From Myxococcota bacterium (lineage in GTDB: Bacteria > Myxococcota_A > UBA9160 > UBA6930), in NCBI GenBank assembly GCA_965223415.1, contig OZ245002.1, forward strand, positions 1,696,001 to 1,760,000: 64,000 nt of DNA. The letters run 5' to 3'. The notes under the pieces are model-generated. The model made no database searches. It worked only from the letters and a program-made list of their open reading frames with translations, and was not told the origin of the DNA. The translations under genes were made by a program, and so were the position numbers. Shown here in pieces: positions 9,862 to 34,811 of the stretch (the first letter of the stretch is position 1; the number at the start of each line of letters is the position of its first letter).

Positions 9862-10305
9862 ATGCACACGTCAGCTCTTGCCGGGAGCCTGCTGGCCATC
9901 CTCCTGGCGAGCCCGAGCACCGCCCGCGCCGAGGGCGGCGACCCGGTCCTCGTCTGCGAGAGCACCACCTGTGAGATCGTCAGCGCGGCCAGCGTCCCGA
10001 AGGGCGGCTACAGCAACACGGGAGTGCGAACCCGCGCCCCCCGCGTCGACCGCCAGGTCTACGACCCGCCCCTGGCACCCTGGGGCGACCGCTCGAGCCC
10101 GGACTGGACCGCCTACCCGAACACCGGCTACCGCCGCCACCGCCGCGGCGTCCACGTGCACGTCCACCACCACCACCACGGCTGCGGCCACAGCTACGTC
10201 CACATCCCCGCCTACCGCCACCGCCTCCACCACGGCCGAAAGCACCACCGCGGCTACGGCGGCCACTTCCGCGCCCACCGCCGCCACCACCGCGATCGGT
10301 TCTAG
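9862..10305 (+). CDS. Secreted protein with a His/Arg-rich C-terminal tail
   Basis: Signal-like N-terminus ending ARA; tail VHVHVHHHHHGCGH...HRRHHRDRF. Confidence 0.6.
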   Translation: MHTSALAGSLLAILLASPSTARAEGGDPVLVCESTTCEIVSAASVPKGGYSNTGVRTRAPRVDRQVYDPPLAPWGDRSSPDWTAYPNTGYRRHRRGVHVHVHHHHHGCGHSYVHIPAYRHRLHHGRKHHRGYGGHFRAHRRHHRDRF

Positions 10306-10378
10306 GTGAGACAAAGGGACGTTCTTTTCTGTCTCACGGCGTCGCCGTGAGACAGAAAAGAACGTCCCCTTGTCTCAC
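10306..10378. mobile_element. 73-bp palindromic REPIN/MITE-like element (family B)
   Basis: 36-bp arms GTGAGACAAAGGGACGTTCTTTTCTGTCTCACGGCG with one mismatch around a central T; AT-richer than the flanks; lies between convergent genes and abuts CTAG 10302-10305. Confidence 0.75.
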
Positions 10379-10557
10379 GATCTCGCTTCGAGCTCCTGCC
10401 GGAGCTTGCAGTGGCGCGCCGCCAGCGGGCTGCACTGGCAGGCCTTCCCGGTGCCGCCGCAGCTCCCCTGGAGGCGCTTGCCCTGGACGAGCACACCCAG
10501 CGACATCGCGAGGATGACGATGCCGAAGACGACGAGGGTGGCGAGGAAGGTGGCCAT
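10375..10557 (-). CDS. nqrM: Na+-NQR maturation factor
   Basis: 60 aa, one TM helix, then KRLQGSCGG and further Cys; follows apbE at the end of the nqr operon. Confidence 0.85.
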   Translation of the reverse strand: MATFLATLVVFGIVILAMSLGVLVQGKRLQGSCGGTGKACQCSPLAARHCKLRQELEARS

Positions 10558-10566
10558 GGGGGGAGT

Positions 10567-11589
10567 CTACCGGATGGACGGGAAGCCGCGGGTGGCCCGG
10601 ATCTCGTAACGCCCGTCTCTACTCCGCACGACGAAGTACGCCGCGATCCCGTTCGCCTCCGCCGCCCGCGGCCCCTCCTCCGGCCCGAGCACCAGCAGCG
10701 CCGTCGCCCACGCGTCAGCCATCGCGCAGTCCCCCGCGACGACGCTCACCGAGGCAAGGCTGTGGGCCACGGGGCGGCCGACTCGCGGGTCCACGATGTG
10801 CGTGAGCCGCTCGCCTTCCTGCTCGTAGAAGGCGCGGTAGTCGCCGGAGGTGGCCATGGCCTGGTCGCGAAGCGGCACCACCGCGTGGACGGCGCGTCCG
10901 TCGGGCTCCGGGCGCTCGATGGCGAGGCGCCAGGGGCCGCCGGCCGGGCGCTCGCCGCGGGCGCGTACCTCGCCGCCGACCTCCACCAGGTAGTGCTCGT
11001 GGCCCCGGGCTTCGAGAGCCCGCGCCGCCTGGTCCACGCCGAAGCCCTTCGCCACAGCGGAGAGGTCGACCTCGAGGCCGGGATGCTGCTTGCTCGCGGT
11101 GCCGTCCGCCGGATCCAGCGCGAGCTTCGCGAAGCCGACCCGTTCGCGAAGCGACACCAGCTCCGCGTGGTCCGGCCCGGCACCGGGAACGCGCGCGCCC
11201 GCTCCGAAGCCCCACGCACCTACGAGCGGCCGTACGGTCACGTCGAAGGCGCCGCCGGTCGCCTCGCTCACGTCGCGCGCCAGGGCCATCACACCGAGGG
11301 TCTCGGCCGAGAGAGAGAAGGGCTCGCGGCTCGCGTGACCGTTGAAGTGCGACAGCTCGGAGGCCGGATCCCAGGTGGACATGGCGCCGTCCACCGCGTC
11401 GAGGGCGGCCTGCACGTCGGCCCGGGCGCCTGGGTCGGAACGCGCGAGGGTGACGGACCAGGTCGTCCCCATCGTCTCGCCGGCGAGCAGTGTGCGCGCC
11501 GGCGCCTGACACCACAGGGTGCGCAGGGTCAGCGCCGCGAGGACGAGCAGGAAGATCGGCAGCAGGAGCCGCGCGCGCGGCGTCAGCAC
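10567..11589 (-). CDS. apbE: FAD:protein FMN transferase
   Basis: TMGTTW, GAFDVTV, DLSAVAKGFGVD, VEVGGE, ATSGDYR, HIVDPR, ADAWATAL. Confidence 0.95.
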   Translation of the reverse strand: MLTPRARLLLPIFLLVLAALTLRTLWCQAPARTLLAGETMGTTWSVTLARSDPGARADVQAALDAVDGAMSTWDPASELSHFNGHASREPFSLSAETLGVMALARDVSEATGGAFDVTVRPLVGAWGFGAGARVPGAGPDHAELVSLRERVGFAKLALDPADGTASKQHPGLEVDLSAVAKGFGVDQAARALEARGHEHYLVEVGGEVRARGERPAGGPWRLAIERPEPDGRAVHAVVPLRDQAMATSGDYRAFYEQEGERLTHIVDPRVGRPVAHSLASVSVVAGDCAMADAWATALLVLGPEEGPRAAEANGIAAYFVVRSRDGRYEIRATRGFPSIR

Positions 11590-11608
11590 CTCGGGGCGGG
11601 GCGTCTGC

Positions 11609-12835
11609 CTAGCCTCCGAAATCGTCGAACATGACGTTCTCGGGCTCCACGCCGAGATCGTCCAGCATCTTCTTGCAGGCCTCGATCATCATCGGCGGGC
11701 CGCACAGGTAGTACTCGACCTCTTCCGGCTCCGGATGGTCCTTCAGGTAGTTGTCGTAGAGCACCTGGTGGATGAAGCCCGTGAGGCCGGTCCAGTTGTC
11801 CTCGGGCTGGGGCTCGGAGAGGGCCAGATGCCATTCGAAGTTCTCGTTCTCCGAGGCGATGGCGTCGAAGTCCTCGACGTAGAAGGCCTCGCGCAGGGAG
11901 CGGGCCCCGTACCAGAAGGTGACCTTGCGCGTCGCCGACAGGCGGCGGAACTGGTCGAAGATGTGGGAGCGCATCGGCGCCATGCCGGCGCCGCCGCCGA
12001 TGAAGCACATCTCGGCGCCGGTCTCCCGGGCGAAGAACTCGCCGTAAGGGCCGGAGATCACCACCTCGTCGCCGGGCTTCAGGTTGAAGATGTAGGAGGA
12101 CATCTGGCCGGGCGGCACGTCGGGCGCGTTCGGCGGCGGCGAGGCGATGCGGACGTTCAGCATGATGATGCCCTGCTCGCCCGGGTAGTTCGCCATCGAG
12201 TAGGCGCGCGACACCTCCTCGTCCACCTTCGACTCGTAGCGCCACAGGTTGAACTTGTCCCAGTCGTCCCGGTACTCCTCTTCCACGTCGAAGTCGCCGT
12301 ACTCGGCCACGTGGGGCGGGCACTCGATCTGGATGTAGCCCCCGGCGCGGAACGGAACCTCTTCGCCCTCCGGCAGCTCGAGGATCAGCTCCTTGATGAA
12401 GGTGGCGACGTTGTGGTTCGAACGGACCTGGCAGGTCCACTTGCGAACGTCGAAGACCTCCGCGGGCAGCTCGATCTCCATGTCCTCCTTCACCTTCACC
12501 TGGCAGGCCAGGCGCTCGCCGGCGCGGGCCTCCTTGGGGGTGATGTGGGAGGTCTCGGTGGGCAGGAGCGCCCCGCCGCCGCTCTCGACGTGGCAGCGGC
12601 AGACACCGCAGGTGCCCTTCCCGCCGCAGGCCGAGGGGATGAAGATGCCGGCGCTCGCGAGGGTGGAGAGGAGCGTCCCGCCGCCGTCCACTTCGAGGCT
12701 CTTCGACTCGTCGTGGTTGATGCCGATCTTCATCTTGCCGCCCGGGGTGAGCCGGCTCTTCACGATCAGCAGCACCACGGTCAGCAGGACGATGATGATC
12801 GTGAAGCCGGCCATGCCGAAGACGACGGTGTTCAC
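11609..12835 (-). CDS. nqrF: Na+-translocating NADH:quinone reductase subunit F
   Basis: [12 protein letters not shown] 2Fe-2[36 protein letters not shown]. Confidence 0.97.
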
Positions 12836-13446
12836 AGCTGGATCCCCGAGAAGGACATGAAGGCGATCGCCATCAGGCCGACGGTGATGAAGGTGATGCC
12901 GAGGCCCCGCAGAGGCGCCGGGATGTCGTTGTACCGCAGCCGCTCGCGGACGGCGGCCAGGGCCACGATCGCCAGCGCCCAGCCGATGCCGGAGCCGATT
13001 CCGAACACCGTGGCTTCGCCCAGGGTGTAGTCGCGTTCGACCATGAAGAGCGCGCCGCCGAGGATCGCGCAGTTCACGGCGATGAGCGGGAGGAATACGC
13101 CGAGCGAGCCGTAGAGCGCGGGCGCGAAGCGGTCGATCACCATCTCGACGATCTGCACCGTGGCGGCGATGGTGCCGATCAGCACCAGGAAGCTCAGGAA
13201 GGAGAGGTTCACGTCCGCGCCACCGGGCAGCCAGGCCAGGGCACCCTCCTCCAGGAAACCCTTGTAGAGGACCTGGTTGAGCGGCGTCGTGAGACCGAGC
13301 ACGAAGATCACCGCGACGCCGAGGCCGATGGCGGTCTCCACCTTGCGCGAAACGGCCAGGAAGGAGCACATGCCCAGGAAGAAGGCCAGGGCCATGTTCT
13401 CGACGAAGATCGCCTTCGTCGCCAGGCTGAGGTAGTGCTCGAGCAT
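12832..13446 (-). CDS. nqrE: Na+-NQR subunit E
   Basis: [29 protein letters not shown]. Confidence 0.96.
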
Positions 13447-14111
13447 CAGCGCAGCTCCGGATCCGGCGCGCCTTCGAGGAGCCCGACGTGGAACTCCTCC
13501 TCCACCTGCTCCGGCCGGAAGGCGCGCACGGCCCAGATGAAGCAGCCGATGAGGATGAAGGCGGCGGGCGCCAGCACCATCAAGCCGTTCGGGACGTACC
13601 AGCCGCCCTCGGAGACGGTCGGCAGGATGGTGACGCCGAAGAGCTTGCCGGCCCCGAAGAGCTCGCGGAGCGCGGCCACGACGATCAGCACCAGGGCGTA
13701 GCCACCGGCGTTGCCCACCGCGTCCAGAAAAGAGGGCCAGGGCTTGTTCTGCATCGCGAAGGCCTCCGCCCGACCCATGATGATGCAGTTGGTGATGATG
13801 AGACCGACGAAGACCGAGAGCTGGAGGCTGATCTCGTAGAGAAAGGCCTTCAGGAACTGGTCCGCGATCATCACCATCGAGGCGATGATCGTGAGCTGGG
13901 TGATGATGCGAACGCTCCCGGGGATGAGCGCCCGCAGCGCGCTCACCGCCACCGACGACGCGACCAGCACGAAGAGCACGGCGAAGCTCATCACGAGCGC
14001 CGTGTCCATCTTGGTCGTGACGGCCAGCGCCGAGCAGATGCCCAGCACCTGGAGACCGATCGGATTGTTGTCGACCAACGGGTCGAGCAGGATCTCCTGG
14101 GTCTTGCTCAT
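13446..14111 (-). CDS. nqrD: Na+-NQR subunit D
   Basis: [34 protein letters not shown]. Confidence 0.96.
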
Positions 14112-14890
14112 CCCATCTCTCCTTGCTTCCGCAGCTCGGCCAGGTAGGGCCCGAAGCCCGAGCGGCCCAGCCAGAACTGCAGCATGTTCGATACGCCGTT
14201 GGACGTGAGGGTCGCGCCCGAGAGGCCGTCTACCTGGAAGGGATCGGCTTCCGGGGTGCCCGCGGCGCCCTTCTTCACCCGCAGCTGGGGTTCGCCCCTC
14301 CCGTCGAACACCTGGCGCCCGGGCCAGCGGGCCTTCCAGCTGGGGTTGTCCACCTCGCCGCCGAGACCCGGCGTCTCCTTGTGCTCGTAGAAGGTGATGC
14401 CGCGAACGGTCTGGATGTCCGAGCCGATCGCGATGTAGCCGTAGAGGGTGCCCCACAGCCCGTAGCCCTCGATCGGCAGGACGTAGCCGGCGACTCCGTC
14501 ACCATCCTTGATCCGGTAGACCACCGCATGGTTCGGCACGCGCCGCACCTTCGAGAGGTTGTCCGGCGCGGGCCGGCTGCGGGCCGGGTCCTTCGCGGCC
14601 TTGCGCTGGTCGTAGGAGAGCGGGTCGATGCCGTCGACGAGCTGACCGGTCGAGAGCTCCACCACCACGGCTTCGAGACCGCTCTCGAAACGCGCGTTCA
14701 GCTCCTCGGCCGAGAGACTCTCGTCGTCCCCGGCCAGGCCGGCCACGCCGAGCACCTTCTTGATGCGGTCGAGGCGCTGGTTCTCCACCTGCCGGTCGTG
14801 CAGGCCCACGGCCACCGCCGAGACCATCACCGAGAACACGATGCACAGCACCGTCGTGAAGATCACTGTGTGGCGCGTACTATGCTCCAC
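14108..14890 (-). CDS. nqrC: Na+-NQR subunit C
   Basis: [17 protein letters not shown] attachment site [10 protein letters not shown]. Confidence 0.95.
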
Positions 14891-16097
14891 TGCGGGCCAC
14901 CCTTCGCGCGATGTTGCGCCGGATCACGAAGTGATCGATCAGCGGCGCGAACATGTTCATGAAGAGGATCGCCAGCATCATGCCCTCCGGATAGGCGGGG
15001 TTGATGCAGCGGATGATCACGCAAAGCGCGCCGATCCCGAAGCCGTAGACCAGCTTGCCGCTCTCGGTGTAGGCCGACGAGACCGGATCCGTGCACATGA
15101 ACACCGTGCCGATGGCCCAGCCGCCCAGCACCATGTGCCAGTACCACTGGACACCGAACATCGGGTTCGTTTCGGAGCCGACGAAGTTCAGGAAGACGGC
15201 CATGGCGATGGTGCCGAGGGCCGTGCCGAGCATCGTCCGCCAGGAGCCCACCCCGGTCTGGATGAGCAGGCCCGCGCCGATGAGGCACGCCAGCGCCGAG
15301 GTCTCGCCCATCGAGCCCGGGATCGTGCCGATGAAGGCCGACCACCAGCTCGCCGTGTGCAGCACGCCTTCCTGGGCGGCGGCCTGGGCCAGGAGCGTGG
15401 CACCGGTGAAGCCGTCCACGTCGAGGAAGTCCGCGGCGATCCAGGGCCTGTCGCCGGAGATGTAGGCCGGATAGGCGAAGAACAGGAACGCGCGGCACAC
15501 CAGCGCCGGATTCAGGAAGTTCATCCCGGTGCCGCCGAACACTTCCTTGCCGATGATCAGCCCGAAGGCGGTGCCCAGGGCCACCTGCCACAGGGGGATG
15601 GTCGGCGGGAGGATCAGCGGGAGGAGCGCGCCGGTGACGAGGAAGCCCTCCGTCACCTCGAGATCGCGGATCTGCGCCGTGATGATCTCGATGCCAAGGC
15701 CGACGACGTGCACGACGACGAAGATGGGGAAGAAGTAGAGGGCGCCGAAGAGCGCGCACCACAGCACGTTGCCCGAAGCGTACTGGCCGCCCAGGGCCTG
15801 GAAGAGCGCGTTCTGCCAGTCGGGAAGGGGCGTCGCACCGGCCTCGATGGCGAGGAATGCCTGGTAGCCGGTGTTGAGGACGGCCACGAGCAGGCAGGGC
15901 CCGAGCGCCATCACCACGAGGAACATCATCCGCTTGTAGTCGAGGCCGTCGCGGACGTGGGAGCCGGTGCGCGTCTGGAAGCCGGGGCTGAAGGCGAGCG
16001 TGTCGACCGCCTCGAACGCCGAACCGAGAGCCTGAAATCGCCCCCCCTTGCTGACGTGGGGCTCGATCTTGTCCAGCAGGTCCCGCAGGAACTGCAT
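14880..16097 (-). CDS. nqrB: Na+-NQR subunit B
   Basis: HVRDGLDYKRMM, KEVFGGTGMNFLNPAL, DGFTGAT, GSMGETS, YPEGMMLAILFMN. Confidence 0.96.
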   Translation of the reverse strand: MQFLRDLLDKIEPHVSKGGRFQALGSAFEAVDTLAFSPGFQTRTGSHVRDGLDYKRMMFLVVMALGPCLLVAVLNTGYQAFLAIEAGATPLPDWQNALFQALGGQYASGNVLWCALFGALYFFPIFVVVHVVGLGIEIITAQIRDLEVTEGFLVTGALLPLILPPTIPLWQVALGTAFGLIIGKEVFGGTGMNFLNPALVCRAFLFFAYPAYISGDRPWIAADFLDVDGFTGATLLAQAAAQEGVLHTASWWSAFIGTIPGSMGETSALACLIGAGLLIQTGVGSWRTMLGTALGTIAMAVFLNFVGSETNPMFGVQWYWHMVLGGWAIGTVFMCTDPVSSAYTESGKLVYGFGIGALCVIIRCINPAYPEGMMLAILFMNMFAPLIDHFVIRRNIARRVARSGA

Positions 16098-17479: not shown

Positions 17480-17636
17480 GCGCGACGCTCCCCCTTGGCC
17501 CCGGGGGCACTGGGAGCCCCGGGCCTCGACGGGCGCGGATCCTAGCGTCCGCGATCGATTTCGCTAGCGGAAACAGCGGCTTGACCGGATCTGATATGCT
17601 GGGGACGTCGGGGGGGTGAACCGAGAGGAGGACCTC

Positions 17637-18125
17637 ATGGAGACGCCCCATGTGCCGCTGGCCCGGGAGATCATGACCCGGCGCCTGGTGACCCTGCGCC
17701 CGGAGATGCCGGCCCTCGAGGCCGCCGCCCTGCTGCTCAAGCACGGCATTTCCGGCGCCCCGGTGGTGGACGACGAGGGCCACCTCCTGGGCCTGGTGAG
17801 CGAGTACGACTGCCTGCGTGCGGTCGCCTCCGCCGACTACGAGATGGACGCCCACGACGCCATCGAGGCGGTCGAGGAGCTGATGAGCAAGGATTGCGTG
17901 ACGGTCGGCCCCGAGATGGAGCTGTTCGCCATCGCCCATGAGTTCGTGGTCCGGCGCATGCGGCGCTTCCCGGTGATCGAGAACGGCAAGCTGATCGGCC
18001 AGGTGAGCCGCCGCGACGCTCTCAAGGCCGCGGTCGCCCTGCGCAAGAAGATGGCCGGCAGCCGCCACCACTACCCCGACTACCCTCGAGGCCGAGAGCC
18101 CATCCGCAACTACCCCGGCCGCTGA
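17637..18125 (+). CDS. CBS-domain pair protein
   Basis: ISGAPVVD...LGLVSEYD and RRFPVIENGKLIGQVSRRD; GAGGAGG RBS. Confidence 0.9.
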   Translation: METPHVPLAREIMTRRLVTLRPEMPALEAAALLLKHGISGAPVVDDEGHLLGLVSEYDCLRAVASADYEMDAHDAIEAVEELMSKDCVTVGPEMELFAIAHEFVVRRMRRFPVIENGKLIGQVSRRDALKAAVALRKKMAGSRHHYPDYPRGREPIRNYPGR

Positions 18126-18136
18126 CCCCCGGGGAC

Positions 18137-18167
18137 AAGAAACGGGGCCAGAGTTTAGAATTCAGTT
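18137..18167. repeat. Left inverted repeat of the Y1-transposase locus (family A)
   Basis: AAGAAACGGGGCCAGAGTTTAGAATTCAGTT; 29/31 match to the reverse complement of 19099-19129; contains the transposase stop codon. Confidence 0.9.
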
Positions 18168-19028
18168 GTCGGCGAGTTCGACGTCGGCGGCGAGCCGGCG
18201 CCCCCGCTCCACGGCCTGACTGATCGCCGATGGTGTGGCACCGAGGGCCGCTGCCACCAGCCGCCCGGGGATCCCGAGCTCCCGCACGGCGAGGTAGGCG
18301 GCGATCGCGCGGGCCCGCGAGGAGGCGCGGTCCCTCGCTCCGTGGGCCACCGCCTCGGGCGTGGCCCCTGCGCCGCGGCAGACCCGCCCGAGCAGCTCCT
18401 CCAGAGACGGCTCGTCCGTCAGCCGAACGACCCGGGCCCGGGGATCCGGGGTCCATCCGGCCGCCGAGGGATCCGGGGCTCGCGCGACCCGCTCGCGAAG
18501 GGCGTCGCGTGCGGCAAGCGACTCGGGGCCGGCCAGAGCCAGCGCATCCTCGATGCGCTCGAACGCCCGCGGCTCCCGCTTCCCCACCAGCGCCGAGTAG
18601 CTGCTCCACGGCCAGTCGGCGAGCTCCTCGACGGACGTGACGATGCCCGCCTCGAGCGGGTTGCGGCAGACGTAGGCGATCACCCCGAGAAGATCGGCGT
18701 CGTCCTCGATCCCGCGCGACTTGTATCGGCCCTGATTGACGTAGCCCACCCGGTCGTGCCGCCGGTTGAAGGCGCTGGCGTAGCCACCGTTCAGCCGAGC
18801 CATGAAGCGCGAGAGCGGAACCGGCCCGGTGCGCAGCACCAGATGGAAGTGGTTCGCCATCAGGACGAACGCGAAGCAGAGGAAGCCCAGCTCCTGAATC
18901 AGGCGATCGAGCCGCTCGAGGAGGTCGAGCCGGTCCACGTCCGAGTGGAAGATGGCGCGGCGCTCGAGGCCCCGGACCATCACGTGGTGAGCGGTTCCAG
19001 GAGCGTCCCAGCGAGGAGAACGTGCCAT
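18162..19028 (-). CDS. HUH/Y1 tyrosine transposase (RAYT/TnpA-Y1-like) with a C-terminal HTH
   Basis: HHVMVRG...IF, AFVLMANHFHL (HUH), YASAFNRRHDRVG, GRYKS, catalytic YVCRNP, WPWSSY; C-terminal ARAIAAYLA...VAAALGATPSAISQAV resembles a DnaA-C-type HTH. Confidence 0.9.
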   Translation of the reverse strand: MARSPRWDAPGTAHHVMVRGLERRAIFHSDVDRLDLLERLDRLIQELGFLCFAFVLMANHFHLVLRTGPVPLSRFMARLNGGYASAFNRRHDRVGYVNQGRYKSRGIEDDADLLGVIAYVCRNPLEAGIVTSVEELADWPWSSYSALVGKREPRAFERIEDALALAGPESLAARDALRERVARAPDPSAAGWTPDPRARVVRLTDEPSLEELLGRVCRGAGATPEAVAHGARDRASSRARAIAAYLAVRELGIPGRLVAAALGATPSAISQAVERGRRLAADVELADN

Positions 19029-19098
19029 GACGTGCCTCGGGACCGGGGACCGCGAGGCTAGCGGCCCGCGAGGATGCAAGCGAGCTCCCCGCCGCCGT

Positions 19099-19129
19099 AA
19101 CTGAATTCTTGACTCTGGCCCCGTTTCTT
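19099..19129. repeat. Right inverted repeat of the Y1-transposase locus (family A)
   Basis: AACTGAATTCTTGACTCTGGCCCCGTTTCTT; its last base is part of the nuoN TAA. Confidence 0.9.
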
Positions 19130-20613
19130 TATCTGGCGAGGGCGGCGATGGATTGGTGGGTCCAGTCGAGGAGGGGGAGCCAGGTGAAGGTGCCGGGGGC
19201 GAGGCCCAGGAGGAGCACGCCGGCGGCGCAGCTGGTGAGCACGGCCAGCTCGAGGAAGTCGAGCTCGCGGCGGTGGGGGCGCTCGCGGCGCGGGCGCATG
19301 TACATCGCGATCGGCAGGCGCAGGTAGTAGTAGGCGGAGACGACGCTCGTCACCGCCAGCAGCAGGGCCAGGGGCAGCTGGCCCGCGCTCACGGCGGCCA
19401 GGAAGATCTGGAGCTTGCCCATGAACCCGGCGGTGCCGGGAATGCCGGCGAGGGACAGCATGAAGAGCACCATCAGCGCCGCCAGCCCGGGGCGCCGCTT
19501 CGCCAGGCCGTCGTAGTCCTCGAAGCGGTCGGCCTCCTCGCCACGATGGGTGAGCGAGATCATCACGGCGAAGGCGCCGAGGGTCCCGAACACGTAGGCG
19601 GCCAGGGTGAAGAGGAGCGCCGCGCGGCCGTCGGCGGTGCCGCCGGCCAGGGGAACGAGCAGGTAGCCCGCATGCGCCACCGCCGACCAGGCGAGCATGC
19701 GCTTCACGTTGGCCTGGATCACGGCCATCATGTTGCCGACGATCATGCTCGCCACCGCGAGGGCCGCGAGCACTGCGTCGAGATCCGCCACGCCGCCGAA
19801 CGCCTGGGCCAGCACCCGTAGCAACGCCGCGAAGGCGGCGACCTTCACGGTGACGGCCATGAACGCCGTCACCGCCGTCGGCGCGCCTTCATAGACATCC
19901 GGCGTCCACTGATGGAAGGGCACCGAGGAGGTCTTGAAGGCGAAGCCCACCAGCACGAGCGCCACACCCGCCACCCCCAGCGGATCGCCGGGGGTGAGGC
20001 GCTGCGCGAGCGCGTCGTAGTGCGTGGCACCGGTCGCGCCGTAGACCAGGGCCATCCCGTAGAGCAGGAGCGCCGTCGCGAAGGACCCGGTGACGAAGTA
20101 CTTGAGGGCGGACTCGTTGCTGCGCAGCTTGCCCCGGTCGAAGCCGGCCAGCACATAGAGGGGAATCGACGCGAGCTCGATGCCGAGAAAGACGCCCAGC
20201 AAGTCGACCGCCGAGACGAGCAGCGCCATACCCGCCGTCGAGAGGAGCAGCAGCGCGTAGAACTCGCCGTTGTGGATGCGCAGCTCCTGCAGGTAGCCAT
20301 TCGCCAGGAGACAGGCGAGCAGGGCCGCCAACGCGACCAGGGCGATAGCGAAGTTGGAGAAGCGGTCGAGCCGCAGGAGCGGGTGAGCCGGGTTGAAGGT
20401 CTGCGCCTCGCCGACGGCGAAGCCCTGGGCGGCAATCACCACCACGAGCAGCAGGGTGATGCCAGACACCCCGACCAGCACGCTCCCCGCCCCGCTCTTC
20501 CCCGTGCCTCGCGCGTTCAGGAAGAGCTCTGCGAGCAGTACCGCGAAGGCCCCGATCGCCAGGAACAGCACCGGCAGCACCGCGCCGAGGTCGAGGGACG
20601 GAGTGGGGATCAT
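19129..20613 (-). CDS. nuoN: NADH-quinone oxidoreductase subunit N
   Basis: ESALKYF, FKTSSVPFHQWTPDVYEGAPT, KRMLAWS, SLAGIP. Confidence 0.93.
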   Translation of the reverse strand: MIPTPSLDLGAVLPVLFLAIGAFAVLLAELFLNARGTGKSGAGSVLVGVSGITLLLVVVIAAQGFAVGEAQTFNPAHPLLRLDRFSNFAIALVALAALLACLLANGYLQELRIHNGEFYALLLLSTAGMALLVSAVDLLGVFLGIELASIPLYVLAGFDRGKLRSNESALKYFVTGSFATALLLYGMALVYGATGATHYDALAQRLTPGDPLGVAGVALVLVGFAFKTSSVPFHQWTPDVYEGAPTAVTAFMAVTVKVAAFAALLRVLAQAFGGVADLDAVLAALAVASMIVGNMMAVIQANVKRMLAWSAVAHAGYLLVPLAGGTADGRAALLFTLAAYVFGTLGAFAVMISLTHRGEEADRFEDYDGLAKRRPGLAALMVLFMLSLAGIPGTAGFMGKLQIFLAAVSAGQLPLALLLAVTSVVSAYYYLRLPIAMYMRPRRERPHRRELDFLELAVLTSCAAGVLLLGLAPGTFTWLPLLDWTHQSIAALAR

Positions 20614-24255: not shown

Positions 24256-24258
24256 CCC

Positions 24259-24555
24259 CTACCCCTCGAGGAGGCTCGCGTCCTCGACGTTCACCGTCTC
24301 GCGGTTCCGGAAGAGGGCTATTACGATCCCGAGACCCACCGCCACCTCGGCGGCGGCGACCACGACGACCATCAGGACCAGCACCTGGCCCGTGTGGTCC
24401 GCCCATTGCCGGGAGAAGGCCACCAGCGCCAGGTTCGCGGCGTTCAGCATCAGCTCGATCGACATCAGCACCACGACGACGTTGCGCCGCACCAGCGCGC
24501 CGACCGCCCCGATGGCGAAGAGGATCGCCGAGAGGGCGACAGCTTCCGCCACCAT
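24259..24555 (-). CDS. nuoK: NADH-quinone oxidoreductase subunit K
   Basis: RRNVVVVLMSIELMLNAAN, AAAEVAVGL. Confidence 0.93.
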   Translation of the reverse strand: MVAEAVALSAILFAIGAVGALVRRNVVVVLMSIELMLNAANLALVAFSRQWADHTGQVLVLMVVVVAAAEVAVGLGIVIALFRNRETVNVEDASLLEG

Positions 24556-26197: not shown

Positions 26198-26200
26198 GGC

Positions 26201-27669
<1,469 letters not shown>

Positions 27670-27670
<1 letters not shown>

Positions 27671-28968
27671 CAGAGCGCAAAGCTCTCGGGGAAGGGACAC
27701 TTCTGCGCGCGCACGTGCTCCCGGAGCTCGCCCTCGAAGTGGCGCAGCAGGCCCTGCACGGGCCAGGCAGCGGCGTCGGCGAAGGCGCAGATCGTCGCCC
27801 CCTCCATCGTTCGGGCCACGTCGCCGAGCACGCCGAGCTCCGCCTCCGTCGCCGCGCCCCGCTCGACCCGCAGCAGCAGCTTGTGCATCCAACCCGTGCC
27901 CTCGCGGCACTGGGTGCACTGGCCGCAGGATTCGTCCCGGAAGAAGCCCGAGACGACGCATCCCACCCGCACCATACAAGTGGTCTCGTCCATCACGACC
28001 ACTCCGCCGGTGCCGAGGGCGGTGCCGTGCTTGCGAAGGGACTCGTTCGCCATCGGCACGTCGAGACGGCTCGCGGGCAGCACCGGCATGGAGACGCCGC
28101 CCGGGATGACCGCCTTGAGCTTCCGGCCCCCCGGCACGCCGCCGGCGTGCTCGAACACGATCTCGTCGAGACGGGTCCCGAGGGGCAGCTCGTAGAGACC
28201 CGGTCGTTCGACGTGGCCGGAGACGCCGAAGAGGGTCGTGCCCGGGCTTCGCTCCGTGCCGATGCCACGGAACCACTCGACGCCCCGCGCGAAGATGTGG
28301 GGCACGTGGCAGAAGGTCTCGACGTTGTTCACCGTCGTCGGTCGACCGAAGGCTCCGCGCTCGGCAGGGTAGGGAGGCTTGCGCCGCGGCTGCCCCTTCT
28401 TCCCTTCCAGGGACTCGAGGAGTCCGGTCTCCTCGCCGCAGATGTAGGCGCCCGCGCCGCGCACCAGCACCACCTCGTGGGAGAACCCGCTGCCGAGCAC
28501 CCGCGGGCCGAGCACGCCGGCAGCGCGCGCCTCTTCGATGGCCCGACCGAGGATGCGCGCGGGCTTCGCGTACTCGCCGCGGACGTAGACGAAGGTGGTC
28601 TCGGCGCCGGTGGCGAAGGCGGGGATGAGGATGCCCTCGAGGAGCTGGTGGGGCCCCCGCTCGATCAGCATGCGGTCCTTGAAGGAGCCGGGCTCGCTCT
28701 CGTCCGCGTTGCACACCAGGTAGCTCGGCCCGTCCCGCTCCGTCGGCATGAACGACCACTTGGTGCCCGCGTCGAAGCCGGCGCCGCCGCGCCCCTGCAG
28801 GCCGGCGCGCTTCAGGGTATCGATCACCTCACTCGGACTACGCCCGTTGAGCACCCGGCGCGCCGTCTCGTAGCCGCCATTGGCCCGGTAGCCCGGGAGC
28901 GTCGCGAAGCCGTCATCGCCGAAGTGCTCGCTCAGGTAGCCGGTGACGTGGGGCGCGGGATGGGCCAT
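27670..28968 (-). CDS. nuoF: NADH-quinone oxidoreductase subunit F
   Basis: GRGGAGF, NADESEPGSFKDR, GAGAYICGEET, ESCGQCTQCREG. Confidence 0.96.
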
Positions 28969-28976
28969 GTCGCGGG

Positions 28977-29441
28977 CTACTCCAGCCCGTCCAGGAGCTC
29001 TCGCACCCGCGCCCAGTCGAGGTCTTCGTGATAGGCCTCGTCGACCCGCAGCATCGGCGCGTAGCCGCAGGCACCGAGGCACTCCTCGTGGCCGAGGCTG
29101 ACGCGGCCATCGCCGGTGGTGGCGCCGGCCCGCACCCCCAGGTGCGCTTCGATGCTGCGCAGCAGATCCCGACCGCCGCGCAGCGAGCAGGAGAGGCTCG
29201 TACAGACGTTCACCTGGTGGCGCCCTCGGGGCCGGTCGTGGAATTCGTTGTAGAAGCTGATCACCTCCATCACCTCGGCCGGATGCAGGTCGAATAGCGC
29301 CGCCACCTCCCGCGCCGTCTCGTCCGAGAGATGGCCCAGCTCGTCCTGGACGAGCCGGAGCGCGGCCAGGAGGGCGCCACGCTTCTCCGGCATCTTCGCG
29401 ATCTCCGCGTCGATCGCGGCTCGCGTGGCTGCGCTCACCAT
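28977..29441 (-). CDS. nuoE: NADH-quinone oxidoreductase subunit E
   Basis: VCTSLSC...ECLGACGYAP 2Fe-2S ligands; start overlaps the nuoA stop. Confidence 0.92.
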   Translation of the reverse strand: MVSAATRAAIDAEIAKMPEKRGALLAALRLVQDELGHLSDETAREVAALFDLHPAEVMEVISFYNEFHDRPRGRHQVNVCTSLSCSLRGGRDLLRSIEAHLGVRAGATTGDGRVSLGHEECLGACGYAPMLRVDEAYHEDLDWARVRELLDGLE

Positions 29442-29788
29442 TCGAGCGCGCCCTTCTTCCACTCGTAGAGCAGACCGATCACGAGGGGCACGCTGAACAC
29501 CGCCATCACCGCGAGACCGTAGGCGCCGAGGTCGCGGAAAAGGGCGCCCCAGGGATAGAAGAACACCGCCTCCAGGTCGAAGAGCACGAATAACATCGCG
29601 ACGAGGTAGAACTTCACCGAGAAGCGCTGGTTCGGCGAGACGATCTGCGACTCGCCGCACTCGAAGGGCTCGAGCTTCTCGGCAAACTCGCGCCGCGGCG
29701 AGAGCAGCCGGTGCAGCACGAGGAAGACGGCGGCGATCAGCAGAGCCAGCGCGAGGATCAGCAGAATGCCGACGAACTCGGCGAGCAT
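29435..29788 (-). CDS. nuoA: NADH-quinone oxidoreductase subunit A
   Basis: PFECG, FYLVAMLFVLFDLEAVFFYPW, YEWKKGALEW. Confidence 0.95.
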   Translation of the reverse strand: MLAEFVGILLILALALLIAAVFLVLHRLLSPRREFAEKLEPFECGESQIVSPNQRFSVKFYLVAMLFVLFDLEAVFFYPWGALFRDLGAYGLAVMAVFSVPLVIGLLYEWKKGALEW

Positions 29789-29899
29789 GGTGCGCGGCCC
29801 CCCCTACCGCGAAGTTCCGCTAACTACCCGTCCCAGAAGCGGAAATTCGCGCGGAACCTAGCCGTGTGGAGAGCGCCCGTCAATGTACACTCGCCGGCC

Positions 29900-30904
29900 A
29901 TGCCCACCCCCCTGGCCGTGCTCGGCGCCGGAAGCTTCGGCACCTGCCTGGCCGTGCTGGCCGCGCGCGAGCACGACGTCACGATCTGGGCGCGAGACGC
30001 GGGCACCGCCGAGACCATTCAACGCGACCGCCGCAACCCGCGCTACCTGAGCCACATCGAGCTGCCCGAGAGCATCACGGCCACCGCCGATCTTGCCGAG
30101 GCGCTGACCGACCGGGAGATCGTCGTCTGCGCGGTGCCCAGCCACGGCGTGCGCGACGTGATGGGGCGCGCCGGCAAGGTGATGGACCCGGGCGCGATCC
30201 TGGTCTCGACCGTGAAGGGCATCGAAGTCGAGACCGGCATGACCATGCACAAGGTGCTGGAGGACGTCCTGCCCGAGGCCCTGCACCCGCGCATCGTCTG
30301 CCTCTCGGGGCCGTCCTTCGCGCGGGAGGTGGCCGAGCAAAAGCCCACGGCGGTCACCCTGGCGTGCCGCGAGGAGGGCTACGCGATCGCCGTGCAGACC
30401 GCCCTCTCCTGCCCCTGGTTTCGCTGCTACACCCACGACGACGTGGTGGGCGTCGAGATCGGCGGCGCGCTCAAGAACGTCGTCGCCATCGCGGTCGGCA
30501 TCTGCGACGGCCTCGAGGCCGGCCTCAACGCCCGGGCCGGTCTGATGACGCGCGGGCTGCGCGAGATCACCCGGCTGGGAGAGGCGCTCGGCGCCCATCC
30601 CCTTACCTTCCTGGGGCTCTCCGGAATGGGCGACCTGATCCTCACCTGCACCGGGGATCTCTCCCGCAACCGGACCGTCGGCATCGAGATCGGTCGCGGC
30701 CGGCGCCTCGATGAGATCGTCGCCGGGATGGACCAGGTGGCGGAGGGCGTGCGTACCACCTACGCCGTCTGCGACCTCGCGACCCGCCTGGGCGTGGAGA
30801 TGCCCATCGCCTTCGGGGTGCGGCAGATCCTGAACGGCGAGATCGAGCCGGCAGCCGGCGGGCTGGCGCTGATGACGCGACAGCTGCGGTCGGAGACCGA
30901 GTAG
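29900..30904 (+). CDS. gpsA: NAD(P)H-dependent glycerol-3-phosphate dehydrogenase
   Basis: GAGSFGT, KGIE, SGPSFA, GALKNVVAI, GDLILTC, SRN, EGV. Confidence 0.95.
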   Translation: MPTPLAVLGAGSFGTCLAVLAAREHDVTIWARDAGTAETIQRDRRNPRYLSHIELPESITATADLAEALTDREIVVCAVPSHGVRDVMGRAGKVMDPGAILVSTVKGIEVETGMTMHKVLEDVLPEALHPRIVCLSGPSFAREVAEQKPTAVTLACREEGYAIAVQTALSCPWFRCYTHDDVVGVEIGGALKNVVAIAVGICDGLEAGLNARAGLMTRGLREITRLGEALGAHPLTFLGLSGMGDLILTCTGDLSRNRTVGIEIGRGRRLDEIVAGMDQVAEGVRTTYAVCDLATRLGVEMPIAFGVRQILNGEIEPAAGGLALMTRQLRSETE

Positions 30905-30959
30905 GCCGGGGTCCGCGAACACGTTCTCGCTTCTGGGATTTCGCTGCGGGGACGGGCGG

Positions 30960-30988
30960 TTGACGCCCCGCCACGAGGCGCGTAGCCT
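30960..30988 (+). promoter_or_regulatory. Sigma70-type promoter for feoAB
   Basis: TTGACG-17 bp-TAGCCT upstream of feoA. Confidence 0.6.
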
Positions 30989-31003
30989 GATCGTCCTCCA
31001 AGA

Positions 31004-31024
31004 AATCGAAATTCATTTTCAGTT
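31004..31024. promoter_or_regulatory. Putative Fur box
   Basis: AT-rich imperfect palindrome AATCGAAATTCATTTTCAGTT (minus strand TGAAAATGAATTTCG) between the promoter and the feoA start. Confidence 0.6.
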
Positions 31025-31260
31025 TGACCGACGACCTCCTCTCCCAGCTGCCCGTCGGCGCTTCCGGCACCGTGACCGGGATCGACGCGCCCGAGCCCCT
31101 CGCCACACGGCTTCGGGATCTCGGGCTGCATCCGGGCACGCGGGTCCACTGCCTGCGGCGGGCGCCCCTCGGGGACCCGCGGGTCTACGAGCTGCGCGGT
31201 GTGCAGCTGTGTCTGCGGCACAGCGAGGCGGGCCGAGTGCGGGTGAGCGCCGATGGCTGA
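31024..31260 (+). CDS. feoA: Ferrous iron transport protein A
   Basis: RLRDLGLHPGT, APLGDP; directly upstream of feoB. Confidence 0.9.
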   Translation: MTDDLLSQLPVGASGTVTGIDAPEPLATRLRDLGLHPGTRVHCLRRAPLGDPRVYELRGVQLCLRHSEAGRVRVSADG

Positions 31261-33154
31261 GGCACCGGCTCCCGCCCTGCGCCCGATGCGCCTAGGGCTG
31301 GTGGGCAGCCCGAACTCGGGCAAGACGACGCTCTTCAACGCCCTGACCGGCCTGCGCGCCAAGGTCGGCAACTACCCGGGCGTCACGGTCGAGCGCCGTG
31401 AGGGCACGGTACGGATCGACGGCCGCGAGCTGCAGGTGATCGACCTGCCCGGCACCTACGGGCTCGAACCCATGAGCCCGGACGAGGCGGTGGTGAGCCG
31501 GGTCCTCGCCGGGAAGGTGGCGGAGGTCGCGCCGCCGGACGCGCTCATCGTCACGGTCGACGCCTGCGCCCTGGCGCGCTCCCTGGGCTTCGTCGCCGAG
31601 CTCGTCCGGATGGGCCTGCCCACGTGCCTGGTGCTCACCATGACCGACGAGCTCCGGGCGCGCGGCGGCGAGCTCGACCTCCCGCGCCTGCGGGACGCCC
31701 TCGGCATCCCGGTGTTGGGCGTGGTGGGCCACCGCGGCATCGGCCTGGACGCGCTCCGTCAGCTCCTGGCCGAGCCCCTGGCCTGGGACCGGCCGCCGGT
31801 TCCGCCGCCTGCCGATCCGGAGGAGCGCCACGGCTGGTGCGAATCGGTCCTGGAACGGGTGGTGCAGCGGGCGCCGGGGCGCGATCCGCGGACCGCGGGC
31901 ATCGACCGCGTCGTGCTGCACCCGGTGGCCGGCAGCCTGCTCTTCCTCGTGGTGATGGTGCTCTTCTTCCAGCTCATCTTCGCCTGGGCCTCTCCCGCCA
32001 TGGACGTCATCGATGCGGGCGTGGGGGCCCTGGGCAGCGGCGCCCGCGCCGCCCTGCCCGAGGGCCTGCTGGCGGATTTCGTCAGCGACGGCCTGATCGC
32101 CGGCGTGGGCTCGGTCGTGATCTTCCTGCCCCAGATCGTGCTCCTGTTCGGCCTGCTCTACCTGCTCGAGGACGTGGGCTACATGGCGCGGGCTGCCTTC
32201 GTGGTCGACCGGGCGATGGGACGCATCGGGCTCGAGGGTCGGGCCTTCGTCGCGCTGCTCTCGTCCTACGCCTGCGCGGTGCCGGGCATCATGGCCACCC
32301 GCACCGTTCCCTCGCCGCGCCACCGGCTCGTGACCATCCTGGTCGCGCCGCTGATGACCTGCTCCGCGCGCCTGCCGGTCTACGCGCTTCTGATCGGCGC
32401 GTTCGTCCCGCCCACCACAATGTGGGGCGGGCTCGGCCTCCAGGGGCTGGTGCTGCTGGGCCTCTACCTGCTCGGCGCCGCGACGGCCCTGGTGGCAGCG
32501 GCGGTGCTGAACCGCTTCGTGGTGGAGCCCGCGGCGTTGCCCTTCGTGCTCGAGCTGCCGCCCTACCGGATGCCGCCGCCGAAGCTGTGGGCCTCCCAGG
32601 TTTGGGGCGCCGCCAGCGCCTTCCTGCGCCGGGCGGGCACGATCATCCTGTGCGTGTCGATCGTCCTGTGGGCGCTCCTCACCTTTCCGCGAGCCGAGGC
32701 CCCGGCCGGTACGAGCGCCCCGGAGGCGGCCCGCTACGCCGTCGAGCACAGCGCGGCGGGGCGCATCGGGCGCGCCATCGAGCCGGCGATCGCCCCCCTG
32801 GGCTTCGACTGGAAGATCGGCGTGGGACTGGTGGCCAGCCTCGCGGCGCGCGAGGTGATCGTCGCCACCCTGGCCCAGGTGTACGCGGCCTCGGAGGAGG
32901 ACGAGGTCTCGCTGCGGGCGGCGGTGATCGCCGACGTGGACCCGCGCACCGGCGAGCGCGTCTTCACGCCCGCCACCGTGGCCTCGCTGCTGATCTTCTT
33001 CGTGTTCGCGCTCCAGTGCATGTCGACCCTGGCGGTGATGCGGCGGGAGACCAACTCCTGGCGCTGGCCCGCCTTCGCCTTCGGGTACCTTCTCGCCCTC
33101 GCCTACGGAGCGAGCTTCCTCACCTACCGGATCGTCGATGCCCTCACGACCTGA
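31253..33154 (+). CDS. feoB: Ferrous iron transport protein B
   Basis: GSPNSGKTT, NYPGVTVE, DLPGTY, EDVGYMAR, CSARLPVY, ELPPYR. Confidence 0.96.
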   Translation: MAEAPAPALRPMRLGLVGSPNSGKTTLFNALTGLRAKVGNYPGVTVERREGTVRIDGRELQVIDLPGTYGLEPMSPDEAVVSRVLAGKVAEVAPPDALIVTVDACALARSLGFVAELVRMGLPTCLVLTMTDELRARGGELDLPRLRDALGIPVLGVVGHRGIGLDALRQLLAEPLAWDRPPVPPPADPEERHGWCESVLERVVQRAPGRDPRTAGIDRVVLHPVAGSLLFLVVMVLFFQLIFAWASPAMDVIDAGVGALGSGARAALPEGLLADFVSDGLIAGVGSVVIFLPQIVLLFGLLYLLEDVGYMARAAFVVDRAMGRIGLEGRAFVALLSSYACAVPGIMATRTVPSPRHRLVTILVAPLMTCSARLPVYALLIGAFVPPTTMWGGLGLQGLVLLGLYLLGAATALVAAAVLNRFVVEPAALPFVLELPPYRMPPPKLWASQVWGAASAFLRRAGTIILCVSIVLWALLTFPRAEAPAGTSAPEAARYAVEHSAAGRIGRAIEPAIAPLGFDWKIGVGLVASLAAREVIVATLAQVYAASEEDEVSLRAAVIADVDPRTGERVFTPATVASLLIFFVFALQCMSTLAVMRRETNSWRWPAFAFGYLLALAYGASFLTYRIVDALTT

Positions 33155-34028
33155 GCTCCTCACCTGGCTCGCCTTCGGGCTGCTTCTGCTTCCCTTCCTG
33201 GGCTGCGGAACGAAGTACGCGCGCCAGACGATCCGGGACGACGGCGAGGTCCGGGTCGTCCTGCGCGCGGAGATCAGCGGCGACGCGCGGGTCGAGCAGC
33301 ACTTCCGGCACCCGGCCACCATCTCCAACATCCGCCTGGCCCACATCCTGTCGCGCATCGACGTGCGCAGCGCGGTGGACGACGACGGGGGCCAGCGCAA
33401 GCCGGCCATCGACACCGCGCTCCTGTACGGCCTGGGCGACGTGCTGAGCGAGGCGTTCGCGAAGGCGAAGAGCGACCAGGAGATCGTCGTCGAGGCCACC
33501 CGCAAGGAGAAGCGCCTCGGCATCTTCCACCAGGCCTACATGACGAGCTTCGTCGCCTACGTCGGCGGTGACGACCTGCTCTACCTGCACCTGAACCGGG
33601 TCGACTGGCCGGTTCCAAAGAGCGAGAACACCGAGACCAAGGAGCCCGCCGTAGGCCGCGAGGTCATGCGCTTCAAGGTCATCGCCTCCAACGCCATCGA
33701 GGCCGTCGGCCACCAGGCCGTCGCGGTCGAGTGGCGCGACCCGATCTTCCGCAAGGCCTCCAACATCCGCGTGGGCCCCACCGGCCGCGTCATGCGCCGC
33801 ACCATCCTGATGGGTGAGCCCGAGGAGGCACCGGAAGACGCCCCAGAGCTCCCCGCCGAAGTCATCCCCAGCGACCCGGCGGCTCTCCGCGCCCTCGCCG
33901 AACTCGAAGAGGCCCGCCGAGCCGGCGAGATCACCGAAGCCGAGTACCGCAGACGCCGCCGCGAGCTGCTGAATGAAGAAACGGGGCCGGAGTTAAGAAT
34001 TCAGTTACGCCCCAAGGGGCGTAACTGA
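33138..34028 (+). CDS. Lipoprotein with a C-terminal SHOCT-like helix pair
   Basis: Lipobox FLGC; ELEEARRAGEITEAEYRRRRRELL; the last ~17 codons are read from the palindromic element. Confidence 0.75.
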   Translation: MPSRPELLTWLAFGLLLLPFLGCGTKYARQTIRDDGEVRVVLRAEISGDARVEQHFRHPATISNIRLAHILSRIDVRSAVDDDGGQRKPAIDTALLYGLGDVLSEAFAKAKSDQEIVVEATRKEKRLGIFHQAYMTSFVAYVGGDDLLYLHLNRVDWPVPKSENTETKEPAVGREVMRFKVIASNAIEAVGHQAVAVEWRDPIFRKASNIRVGPTGRVMRRTILMGEPEEAPEDAPELPAEVIPSDPAALRALAELEEARRAGEITEAEYRRRRRELLNEETGPELRIQLRPKGRN

Positions 34029-34055
34029 ATTCTTAACTCCGGCCCCGTTTCTTCA
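33974..34055. mobile_element. 82-bp perfect palindrome; non-autonomous REPIN/MITE-like derivative of the family-A repeat
   Basis: 40-bp arms TGAAGAAACGGGGCCGGAGTTAAGAATTCAGTTACGCCCC with an AA loop; 32/34 match to the extended right repeat of the transposase locus; abuts CTAG 34056-34059. Confidence 0.85.
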
Positions 34056-34811
34056 CTAGAGGTTGCCCTTGTGCTGGCCGCCGTCCACCGCGAGGGTCAC
34101 GCCGGTGATCCAGCTGGCGGGGGCGGAGGCGAGGAAGACGACGGCGGCAGCCACTTCCTCGGCGGTGCCGAGGCGCCCGAAGGGGATCGAGGTGCGGATG
34201 GCCTCGTAGGCCGGCTCGTTGACCTTCTTGATCGTCTCCCACATGCCGCCGGGGAACTCGATGGAGCCCGGGGCGACGGTGTTCACGCGAATGCCCTGGG
34301 GTGCCAGGTTGATGGCCAGCGTCTTCGAGTGGCTCATCAGCGCCGCCTTCACCGCGGCGTAGGCGGGAGGCGAGCCGGCCTCCAGGCCCGAGGTCGACGA
34401 GATGTGGATCACGGCACCGCCACCCGCCTCCTTCATCCACGGCACCACCTTCCAGGTGGCGCGCACCGACGCCATCACGTCCACGTCGAAGCCGGCGGAC
34501 CAGCCGGCCTCGTCGTCGCTCACGCCGAAGCCGGAGGCGTTGTTCACGAGCACGTCGACGCCGCCCAGGGCATCACGGGCGGCGTCGAGAAAGCCGCCGA
34601 GAGCGTCGGCGTCCACCACGTCGCAGGGAGCGGCGTAGGCGCGGACGCCGCGGGACTCGAGCTCCTTGGCCGTCGACTCGAGGGGTCCCTCGCTGCGCGC
34701 GCAGATCGCGACGTTCGCTCCCTCGTCGGCGAACGCCAGGGCCGTCGCCCGCCCGATGCCCTTGCTGCCGCCGGTGATCACCACGTTCCTGCCCGCGAGC
34801 CCGAGATCCAT
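34056..34811 (-). CDS. SDR family oxidoreductase
   Basis: TGGSKGIG, VLVNNA, YAAVK, IRVNTVAPG, VDGG. Confidence 0.93.
   Translation of the reverse strand: MDLGLAGRNVVITGGSKGIGRATALAFADEGANVAICARSEGPLESTAKELESRGVRAYAAPCDVVDADALGGFLDAARDALGGVDVLVNNASGFGVSDDEAGWSAGFDVDVMASVRATWKVVPWMKEAGGGAVIHISSTSGLEAGSPPAYAAVKAALMSHSKTLAINLAPQGIRVNTVAPGSIEFPGGMWETIKKVNEPAYEAIRTSIPFGRLGTAEEVAAAVVFLASAPASWITGVTLAVDGGQHKGNL

Follow-up and report, generated by a model that had tools for sequence, protein, structure and literature searches.

The window analysed here, a 64,000-nucleotide stretch of the genome of a Myxococcota bacterium (contig OZ245002.1; source genome, G000, of 5.83 Mb and 71% GC, compared with its relatives G001–G005), contains two palindromes, termed elements A and B, and a gene for a Y1 transposase. 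To judge from its sequence, this locus is a TIRtron/TIRYT system, a known class of element, and each palindrome is a non-autonomous dimer, joined head to head, of the terminal inverted repeat (TIR) of a helix-turn-helix (HTH)-bearing HUH/Y1 nuclease (TIRtron). The current study shows that such elements are bordered by a strand-polarised compositional halo on the outer side of the TIR, where the inward strand is C-rich and G-poor and the outward strand is G-rich, the effect fading over approximately 300–450 nt, and that this halo goes with occupancy of the site by an element. We put at roughly one in two the probability that it arises through nicking by the nuclease at the dispersed TIRs, followed by nick-primed mutagenesis of the adjoining DNA.

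The halo was assessed at the repeats of four TIR families (A to D), using 5191 genes called with a dicodon model made for this analysis, of which single calls can be wrong. At four-fold degenerate sites in the last 10 host codons of the 286 genes that end at an element, G accounted for 0.117 and C for 0.827, compared to 0.40–0.42 G and 0.46 C in 3280 control genes, and G was scarcer near the element than far from it in 270 of the 286, as opposed to 1639 of the 3280 controls. Expressed as (G-C)/(G+C) on the inward strand, the shift amounted to -0.60 at 10–60 nt, -0.33 at 120–200 nt and -0.04 at 300–450 nt; genes that start at an element gave the mirror image (-0.37, -0.22 and +0.01 at the same distances) and were shifted in 50 of 57 cases, the control figure being 1134 of 2226. 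Non-coding flanks shifted likewise. At two-fold sites G gave way to A and T to C, and the encoded proteins changed in parallel, since near elements Glu fell from 8.3 to 7.0% and Gly from 9.0 to 7.7%, and Asp rose from 5.3 to 6.2%. All eight codon boxes and all four next bases were shifted with no context preference, which rules out context-specific deamination. Extension of the flanks as quasi-palindromes was also rejected, as position-specific complementarity was absent (16.6 vs 16.7 matches in 55 nt). The chromosome-wide skew of this genome, in which origin and terminus have no clear placement, is weak, and the halo is far stronger.

The dependence on occupancy was established with orthologues of 54 element-adjacent genes drawn from six dense regions, the two window sites and incidental matches, leaving out pairs of less than 65% identity or truncated where a contig stops. 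At homologous four-fold sites of the last 15 codons the skew was -0.80 in G000, -0.68 in occupied relatives (41 pairs) and -0.17 in element-free relatives (96 pairs), and its direction was consistent with occupancy in 37 of 40 genes. The reverse comparison, of 24 flanks that are filled in G005 and empty in G000, gave a G content within 50 nt of 0.21 and 0.38, respectively, and five start-facing genes agree (+0.39 vs +0.05). Sites were scored as empty by a motif list plus a stem test, which decayed elements can escape, and at site B a G001 locus with a TIR visible by eye was counted as empty. These data also bear on the notion that elements enter, or survive at, sites that were skewed beforehand, the halo then being the cause. 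Such a notion draws on the reuse of sites by different families (22 of the 54 genes have an occupied relative, a number inflated by some loci having been fetched for their elements) and on the slightly greater skew of empty relatives near the gene end (-0.17 to -0.24) than far from it (-0.10 to -0.13); yet the same codon positions in element-free orthologues lack the halo, in both directions of the comparison, and we consider it scarcely credible.

Some sites appear to stay filled while the repeat family changes, across species and genera. Sites occupied in G000 hold other TIR families or a TIRtron in G013 (L008), G012 (L007) and G001 (L071). In G003 (contig C153; L030, L023), an unrelated 80-nt palindrome lies between the orthologues of the SHOCT-domain and dehydrogenase genes that flank element B; each of its ends carries a TAA stop, and its halo is strong (3 G out of 28 on the dehydrogenase side).

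The halo is also seen at TIRtron loci of other genomes, where 52 of the 66 genes facing an element were C-shifted compared to 86 of 165 other genes (80 loci, most of them from GC-rich kin); at loci below 64% GC, 10 of the 12 facing genes were shifted.

A generic effect of hairpins was ruled out by the absence of the halo at 46 non-TIR hairpins with stems of 11–14 bp; non-TIR stems of at least 15 bp formed a group of only 8, too few for a comparison, one of which is a missed family-D element. Single arms of family D have a halo on both sides and those of family C mainly on the outer side, and the interior of transposase genes has none (31 genes). It is against this background that a mutational origin without catalysis has to be judged, whereby a TIR-bound protein or an extruded hairpin would stall forks or RNA polymerase, and repair or restart would leave the bias. 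The dimers do fold very stably, and family A keeps its halo (44 of 50 genes) despite a frameshift in its nuclease gene in the assembly. However, the halo of family A is the weakest of all (-0.45, compared to -0.62 to -0.73), non-TIR hairpins lack what single arms possess, and the halo lies on the outer side of the TIR and not inside TIRtrons, so that this origin seems to us rather improbable.

The two window sites comprise the following features:

10306..10378, unstranded: element A, a family-A TIR dimer forming a 73-nt palindrome, each arm being itself a small hairpin.

9862..10305, plus strand: His-rich open reading frame (ORF) whose TAG stop, within the CTAG at 10302–10305, adjoins element A.

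10375..10557, minus strand: ORF for a 60-aa membrane protein whose stop is the terminal TGA of element A; its orthologues use a TAG of their own.

33974..34055, unstranded: element B, a family-B TIR dimer forming an 82-nt perfect palindrome.

33138..34028, plus strand: gene that extends 55 nt into element B and has a C-terminal SHOCT-like domain (under the Pfam cut-off).

34056..34811, minus strand: short-chain dehydrogenase gene whose TAG stop adjoins element B.

Four-fold sites in the 200 nt before the element carry 3 G and 29 C in the His-rich ORF and 5 G and 32 C in the SHOCT-like gene, while in the last 150 nt of the dehydrogenase gene G occupies 5 of 30 such sites, compared to 14 of 30 in the element-free G001 orthologue. 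Both palindromes had been described in an earlier note on this DNA, made by a model from the sequence, and its description is confirmed: element A consists of inverted repeats at 10306–10341 and 10343–10378 (arms 97% complementary; folding z-score -13) and element B of those at 33974–34013 and 34016–34055 (100%; -18), the outer end of B possibly reaching approximately 3 nt further in some copies, and comparison of the arms of A with those of B reveals no relation in sequence. The lack of a target duplication, noted for these two sites, holds across dimers in general, as a direct repeat of at least 3 nt at any of eight end offsets was found in at most 2 of 37 family-A and 3 of 43 family-B dimers; a miniature inverted-repeat transposable element that forms target-site duplications was thereby ruled out. 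No Rfam match was obtained in the window. The His-rich ORF has a long His/Arg-rich C-terminal half, no Pfam or NCBIfam match, and a 33% identical orthologue at the same place in G003; a search of E. coli with the dehydrogenase gene gave no match.

The halo might alternatively be selected. C-rich, G-poor RNA leading into a hairpin would constitute a Rho-loading tract, and element plus halo would then act as a two-way terminator that ends sense and antisense transcripts, which is close to the terminator idea of the earlier note. Long tracts of high C over G mark Rho-terminated fragments in Bacillus subtilis (PMC13323073), the polarity of the halo suits transcripts nearing the element from either side, end-facing genes are shifted more (-0.51 to -0.60) than start-facing ones (-0.37 to -0.40), and a two-state model of composition is compatible with selection. 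Conversely, a Rho tract that lies as much as 100 codons ahead of the stop, where the RNA is translated, would carry a risk of premature termination; T falls and A rises at two-fold sites; amino acids shift along with the halo; and other gene-end hairpins have no halo, whereas single family-D arms have one in the absence of a long hairpin. We regard selection as the main rival explanation, albeit an unlikely one.

In the explanation that we favour, nick-primed mutagenesis, the nuclease would bind the TIR and, in the course of evolution, nick again and again at that site or next to it; the resulting 3'-OH would prime outward strand-displacement or nick-translation synthesis, which would expose single-stranded DNA and escape normal mismatch repair, and one-way G-to-C change on the inward strand would rise approximately 4–8 fold. 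HUH enzymes leave a 3'-OH and a 5'-phosphotyrosine (PMC8266576), and this 3'-OH could prime outward synthesis; such synthesis over tens of bases is on record for engineered nickase-polymerase fusions (PMC9358013). The further proposition that HTH-bearing domesticated HUH nucleases are site-specific nickases which start outward low-fidelity synthesis, making local mutators of approximately 250 repeats, is put forward tentatively, as its chances appear to be somewhat short of even. If true, the codon usage and C-terminal residues of approximately 5% of host genes would be rewritten and their ends eroded, and the halo would represent the first genome-scale record of the in vivo action of HTH-bearing HUH nucleases.

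Several observations weigh against nicking and mutagenic synthesis at the TIR, which we infer. A polymerase with the needed bias was not found. In the two-state model a 4–8 fold rise in mutation and selection of a strength of approximately 3–4 both fit the composition, one distance bin favouring mutation and the next selection. A at four-fold sites is not raised, and plain cytosine deamination therefore fails as the cause. The shift in start-facing genes reaches only approximately 60–80% of that in end-facing genes, which hints at an RNA-level or strand-of-transcription component, and the right flank of element A has little halo (13 G out of 38). The genomes compared are kin, such that p-values overstate the case. 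Finally, no C-rich halo was present at 33 genes adjacent to repetitive extragenic palindromic (REP) sequences in 500 kb of E. coli K-12, repeats that are likewise linked to an HUH nuclease. These REP-adjacent ends (L340–L349) lean to G, that is, to the opposite polarity, in 22 of the 33 genes (11 being C-shifted; p 0.08), with a skew of 0.29 near the repeat and 0.16 far from it.

The nuclease genes and TIRs to which elements A and B relate are the following:

18162..19028, minus strand: TIRYT gene for an HUH/Y1 nuclease (H60, H62, Y119-xxx-NP) with a helical C-terminal domain, cognate to family B.

18135..18167, plus strand: family-B TIR past the 3' end of the transposase gene, with no folding on its own (z 0.15).

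19099..19131, minus strand: family-B TIR upstream of the transposase gene.

G000:C1:3235821-3236765: family-A cognate TIRs around a frameshifted Y1 gene.

The window protein matches PF01797 (E 1.4e-7), and H60, H62 and Y119, the last in the motif YVCRNP, are invariant in 15 of 15 aligned proteins. The best structural match of its model is E. coli TnpA-REP (4ER8), and the C-terminal domain is modelled as helical; among the homologues this domain matches HTH_23 in 6 of 15 and Bac_DnaA_C in 3 of 15, neither of which is matched by the window protein itself, and the NF047646 score of the latter is 60.8 against a cut-off of 80. The gene lies between TIRs of 31 nt that are 94% complementary (18137–18167 and 19099–19129), and the family-B arm has no internal hairpin. 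Four Y1 genes of this type are present in the genome, each in one copy between TIRs of its own, and the core motifs of the four families identify 45, 66, 62 and 80 loci, with 37 full dimers for family A and 43 for family B. In element B the dimer is formed by the TIR of the window gene, while element A matches that of another Y1 gene, G000:C1:3235897 (local score 27 vs 4–10, the TIRs of the window gene giving 4–5). The earlier note had linked both palindromes to the window enzyme; a RAYT-like Y1 enzyme is indeed linked to them in kind, but the window gene fits B only and the idea of one enzyme for both has to be given up. The family-A nuclease gene (G000:C1:3235897-3236697) has a frameshift near codon 95, which could be an assembly error. 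As both arms carry the same sequence in 28 of 37 family-A and 38 of 43 family-B dimers and the copies differ among themselves, one arm was probably copied from its partner.

The transposase gene occupies the same locus in G004 and G005, and thus in three species in all, and G005 also has its TIR and its repeat family. In G001–G005, whose genomes are 82–97% complete, family A (at up to 2 mismatches) yielded only 2 partial matches and family B was found only in G005. Exact-match scans returned 0 matches of the B arm in metagenome contigs and 0 of the A arm in genome contigs, and a plasmid search returned 13 distant records, none covering 80%. Related records carry Myxococcota or Deltaproteobacteria labels, and an inverted TIR pair was found at 67 of the 78 related loci scored. 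Most TIRs (L002–L017, L260–L339) have a core of the GGGGAC or GGGGCC type with one or two family-specific motifs of 8–9 nt beside it, the motif copies being direct in families B and D and inverted in A and C; this motif is a candidate for the site that the C-terminal domain binds. In Desulfosarcina alkanivorans, four related Y1 genes whose TIRs are nearly identical (L317, L318, L320, L321) lie within approximately 40 kb, suggesting that the whole unit was duplicated or moved recently. A long sequence present in approximately 20 identical copies in G000 (by 16-mer counts) is probably an active insertion sequence.

With regard to position, the 80 full dimers comprise 46 between convergent genes, 32 in tandem gaps, 1 between divergent genes and 1 called intragenic, and 76 have an end on or over a stop codon. 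Stop-facing ends lie within 2 nt of a stop, or contain it, in 116 of 124 cases irrespective of stop type, and the stop is in or over the element at 90 of the 124, bearing out the suggestion that C-termini are remodelled. Start-facing ends (n=34) lie 5–301 nt from the start codon. The enrichment of A just outside family-A ends is restricted to those that face a stop (26 of 53, compared to 3 of 19 other ends), and third-frame read-through is seen in 9 of the 15 arms that have an internal TGA and in only 2 of the 38 that lack one. By eye, approximately half of the flanks that are filled in G005 and empty in G000 retain the native stop, and several others have the last one to seven codons replaced. 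Elements stay at gene 3' ends, and not at CTAG. It would appear that insertion is imprecise, or is eroded later, and is then selected for a usable stop and ribosome-binding site: insertion or later processing would take out the host spacer and sometimes the last codons; and selection would retain those copies whose ends give a stop and spare the ribosome-binding region of start-facing genes.

The earlier note had gone further, in proposing that one RAYT-like enzyme places palindromes exactly at CTAG-overlapped stops of convergent genes. Its local observations are sound: a CTAG touches each palindrome (10302–10305 for A, 34056–34059 for B), removal of either element in silico yields a convergent pair sharing a CTAG stop overlap (with protein ends DRF/EARS and ELLN/GNL), and the two element-free overlaps cited as empty counterparts are real:

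42883..42886, unstranded: convergent genes with an ordinary CTAG stop overlap and no element.

53939..53942, unstranded: ordinary CTAG stop overlap of convergent genes that has neither element nor halo (21 G/21 C and 21 G/19 C).

Convergent gene ends are indeed favoured, as the dimer contexts show, but the overlapped stops are not the target. CTAG adjoins only 3 of 37 family-A and 1 of 43 family-B dimers, position counts over the copies reveal no conserved flank motif where CTAG or YTAG had been expected, and there is essentially no enrichment of CTAG at other copies; the 32 dimers in tandem gaps and the different cognate genes of the two families likewise speak against the proposal. Since CTAG is rare overall (2126 observed vs 7166 expected) and is often a called stop (1009 instances), its presence near gene ends is to be expected; 1098 of 1891 TAG-ending genes end in CTAG, and 89 of 848 convergent pairs genome-wide have a CTAG overlap. 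Precise deletion restores such an overlap in 2 of 18 family-A and 2 of 28 family-B convergent copies, where mismatched flanks predict 0.76 and 0.78 (in total, 4 of 46 vs 1.5), which is below the rate of four-base stop overlaps in element-free convergent pairs (112 of 699); in one of the two restoring B copies the CTAG is 24 nt away from the element, and at most 4 overlaps per family were obtained with any of 64 combinations of cut points. The restored state was not encountered in relatives at site A or site B: at site A four element-free relatives (G002–G005) have two separate TAG stops 7–31 nt apart, and at site B the SHOCT orthologues extend 2–4 residues past the restored protein, other repeats being present in G001, G003 and G005. 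The relatives are approximately 80% identical, which bounds the ancestral state of a site only loosely. Among the 15 joints listed, with 607 further ones, none skips element B in four of seven runs, all contigs; this comparison covered site B.

In favour of the CTAG proposal, restoration holds at both window sites and at a third copy, of family A (G000:C1:1794252); six family-A dimers share their own last base with a CTAG; and the stops overlap by 4 nt in two empty relatives at family-A site C1:1370623 (CTAG in one, TTAG in the other). The third copy and site C1:1370623 tell against its dismissal, as does the limit that no strain-level empty allele was found in four runs. As a general rule CTAG targeting is nevertheless refuted, and the likelihood of the proposal as originally formulated is very slight. 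A CTAG-targeting system would have been new; the data do not support CTAG targeting.

Elsewhere in the window, one further site is relevant to the halo:

52009..52036, unstranded: short hairpin that runs from stop to stop, built on a family-D-like motif and flanked by a halo on either side.

The same site holds a family-B element in G005, and the hairpin is probably a decayed element. Positions 61641–61934 form a 42-nt tandem array of at least 6 overlapping copies, and a coding repeat rich in Lys/Arg occupies 47774–48035 of the minus strand.

What RAYT-type domesticated transposases do in the cell, and how, are open questions, and no biochemistry of the HTH-bearing TIRYT branch was found in the literature surveyed. 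The halo would offer a measurable trace of nuclease activity, in terms of the TIR side processed, a tract of approximately 300 nt and the direction of substitution. Halos could also mark lost elements, such as that at 52009–52036, and they are a local confounder for analyses of codon usage and skew.

Among known systems, the closest are the TIRtrons/TIRYTs described by Di Nocera, De Gregorio and Rocco in 2013 (PMC3733652), in which, as here, a Y1 gene lies between long TIRs that also occur dispersed, singly or as dimers, one genome can hold several TIRYT genes that differ in their TIRs, and some TIRs are self-complementary. Moderate TIR families were already reported in that work, as was the supply of TAG stops by REP termini, with convergent REPs within 20 bp of both stops. 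The motif GGGGWSAS given there for some TIRs is matched only in part, by inspection at 7 of 8 positions by the B core and 6 of 8 by the A core, the cores here being GGGGAC-GT and GGGGCC-AG. The words 'skew', 'duplication' and 'empty' do not occur in the main text of that paper, where accordingly no target rule, stop-replacement statistics or halo was seen. Quentin et al. (2018, PMC6006769) equate TnpA-Y1 subclass 2.1 with RAYT Group 1 and place 20 of 26 TIRYTs there; its HUH plus Y-xxx-NP core and C-terminal HTH (Bac_DnaA_C, HTH_23, HTH_28) resemble the window gene type, which has the Y-xxx-NP core, an HTH in homologues and a modelled helical C-terminal domain in the window protein. That study reports no REP-like sequences near the genes, in contrast to the four genes here with 45–80 loci each, and such large repeat populations fit awkwardly with the view that REPINs are confined to Groups 2 and 3 (Bertels and Rainey, bioRxiv 2021.07.10.451892; bioRxiv 119735).

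The REPIN-RAYT systems of Groups 2 and 3 share with the present one hairpin doublets, a single-copy cognate nuclease and the coexistence of several families (PMC3116915, PMC8266576, bioRxiv 2024.10.14.618302), the filling of one site by different repeat types in relatives (bioRxiv 2024.10.14.618302) and a fold nearest to that of E. coli TnpA-REP (4ER8). They differ in that no GTAG is present in either arm here, the family-B TIR has no fold and the nuclease has an extra C-terminal domain; a canonical REPIN-RAYT, with its GTAG hairpin unit and a nuclease that has no HTH tail, was consequently rejected. The IS200/IS605 elements IS608 and ISDra2 have the same catalytic fold and no general target duplication, but the present system has no fixed target motif, loses host DNA at the junctions and has single-copy nuclease genes, of which that in the window holds its position in three species; an IS200/IS605 insertion sequence, with a fixed target of 4–5 nt and a multi-copy transposase, was thus also rejected.

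The leading strand at a replication origin is G-rich. The G-rich outward strand of the halo has this same polarity (see also PMC3174206), and both replication-linked GC skew and nickase-polymerase mutagenesis resemble the halo in producing strand-asymmetric change in connection with single-stranded DNA or nick translation (PMC6263442, PMC9358013). No description of a flank halo was found in the literature, mostly open access, that was searched on RAYTs, REPINs, TIRYTs, skew, local mutation and strand asymmetry. Compared to replication skew and engineered mutagenesis, the halo is natural, local (approximately 300 nt) and present at approximately 250 repeats, and it is apparently an undescribed, well-supported compositional footprint.

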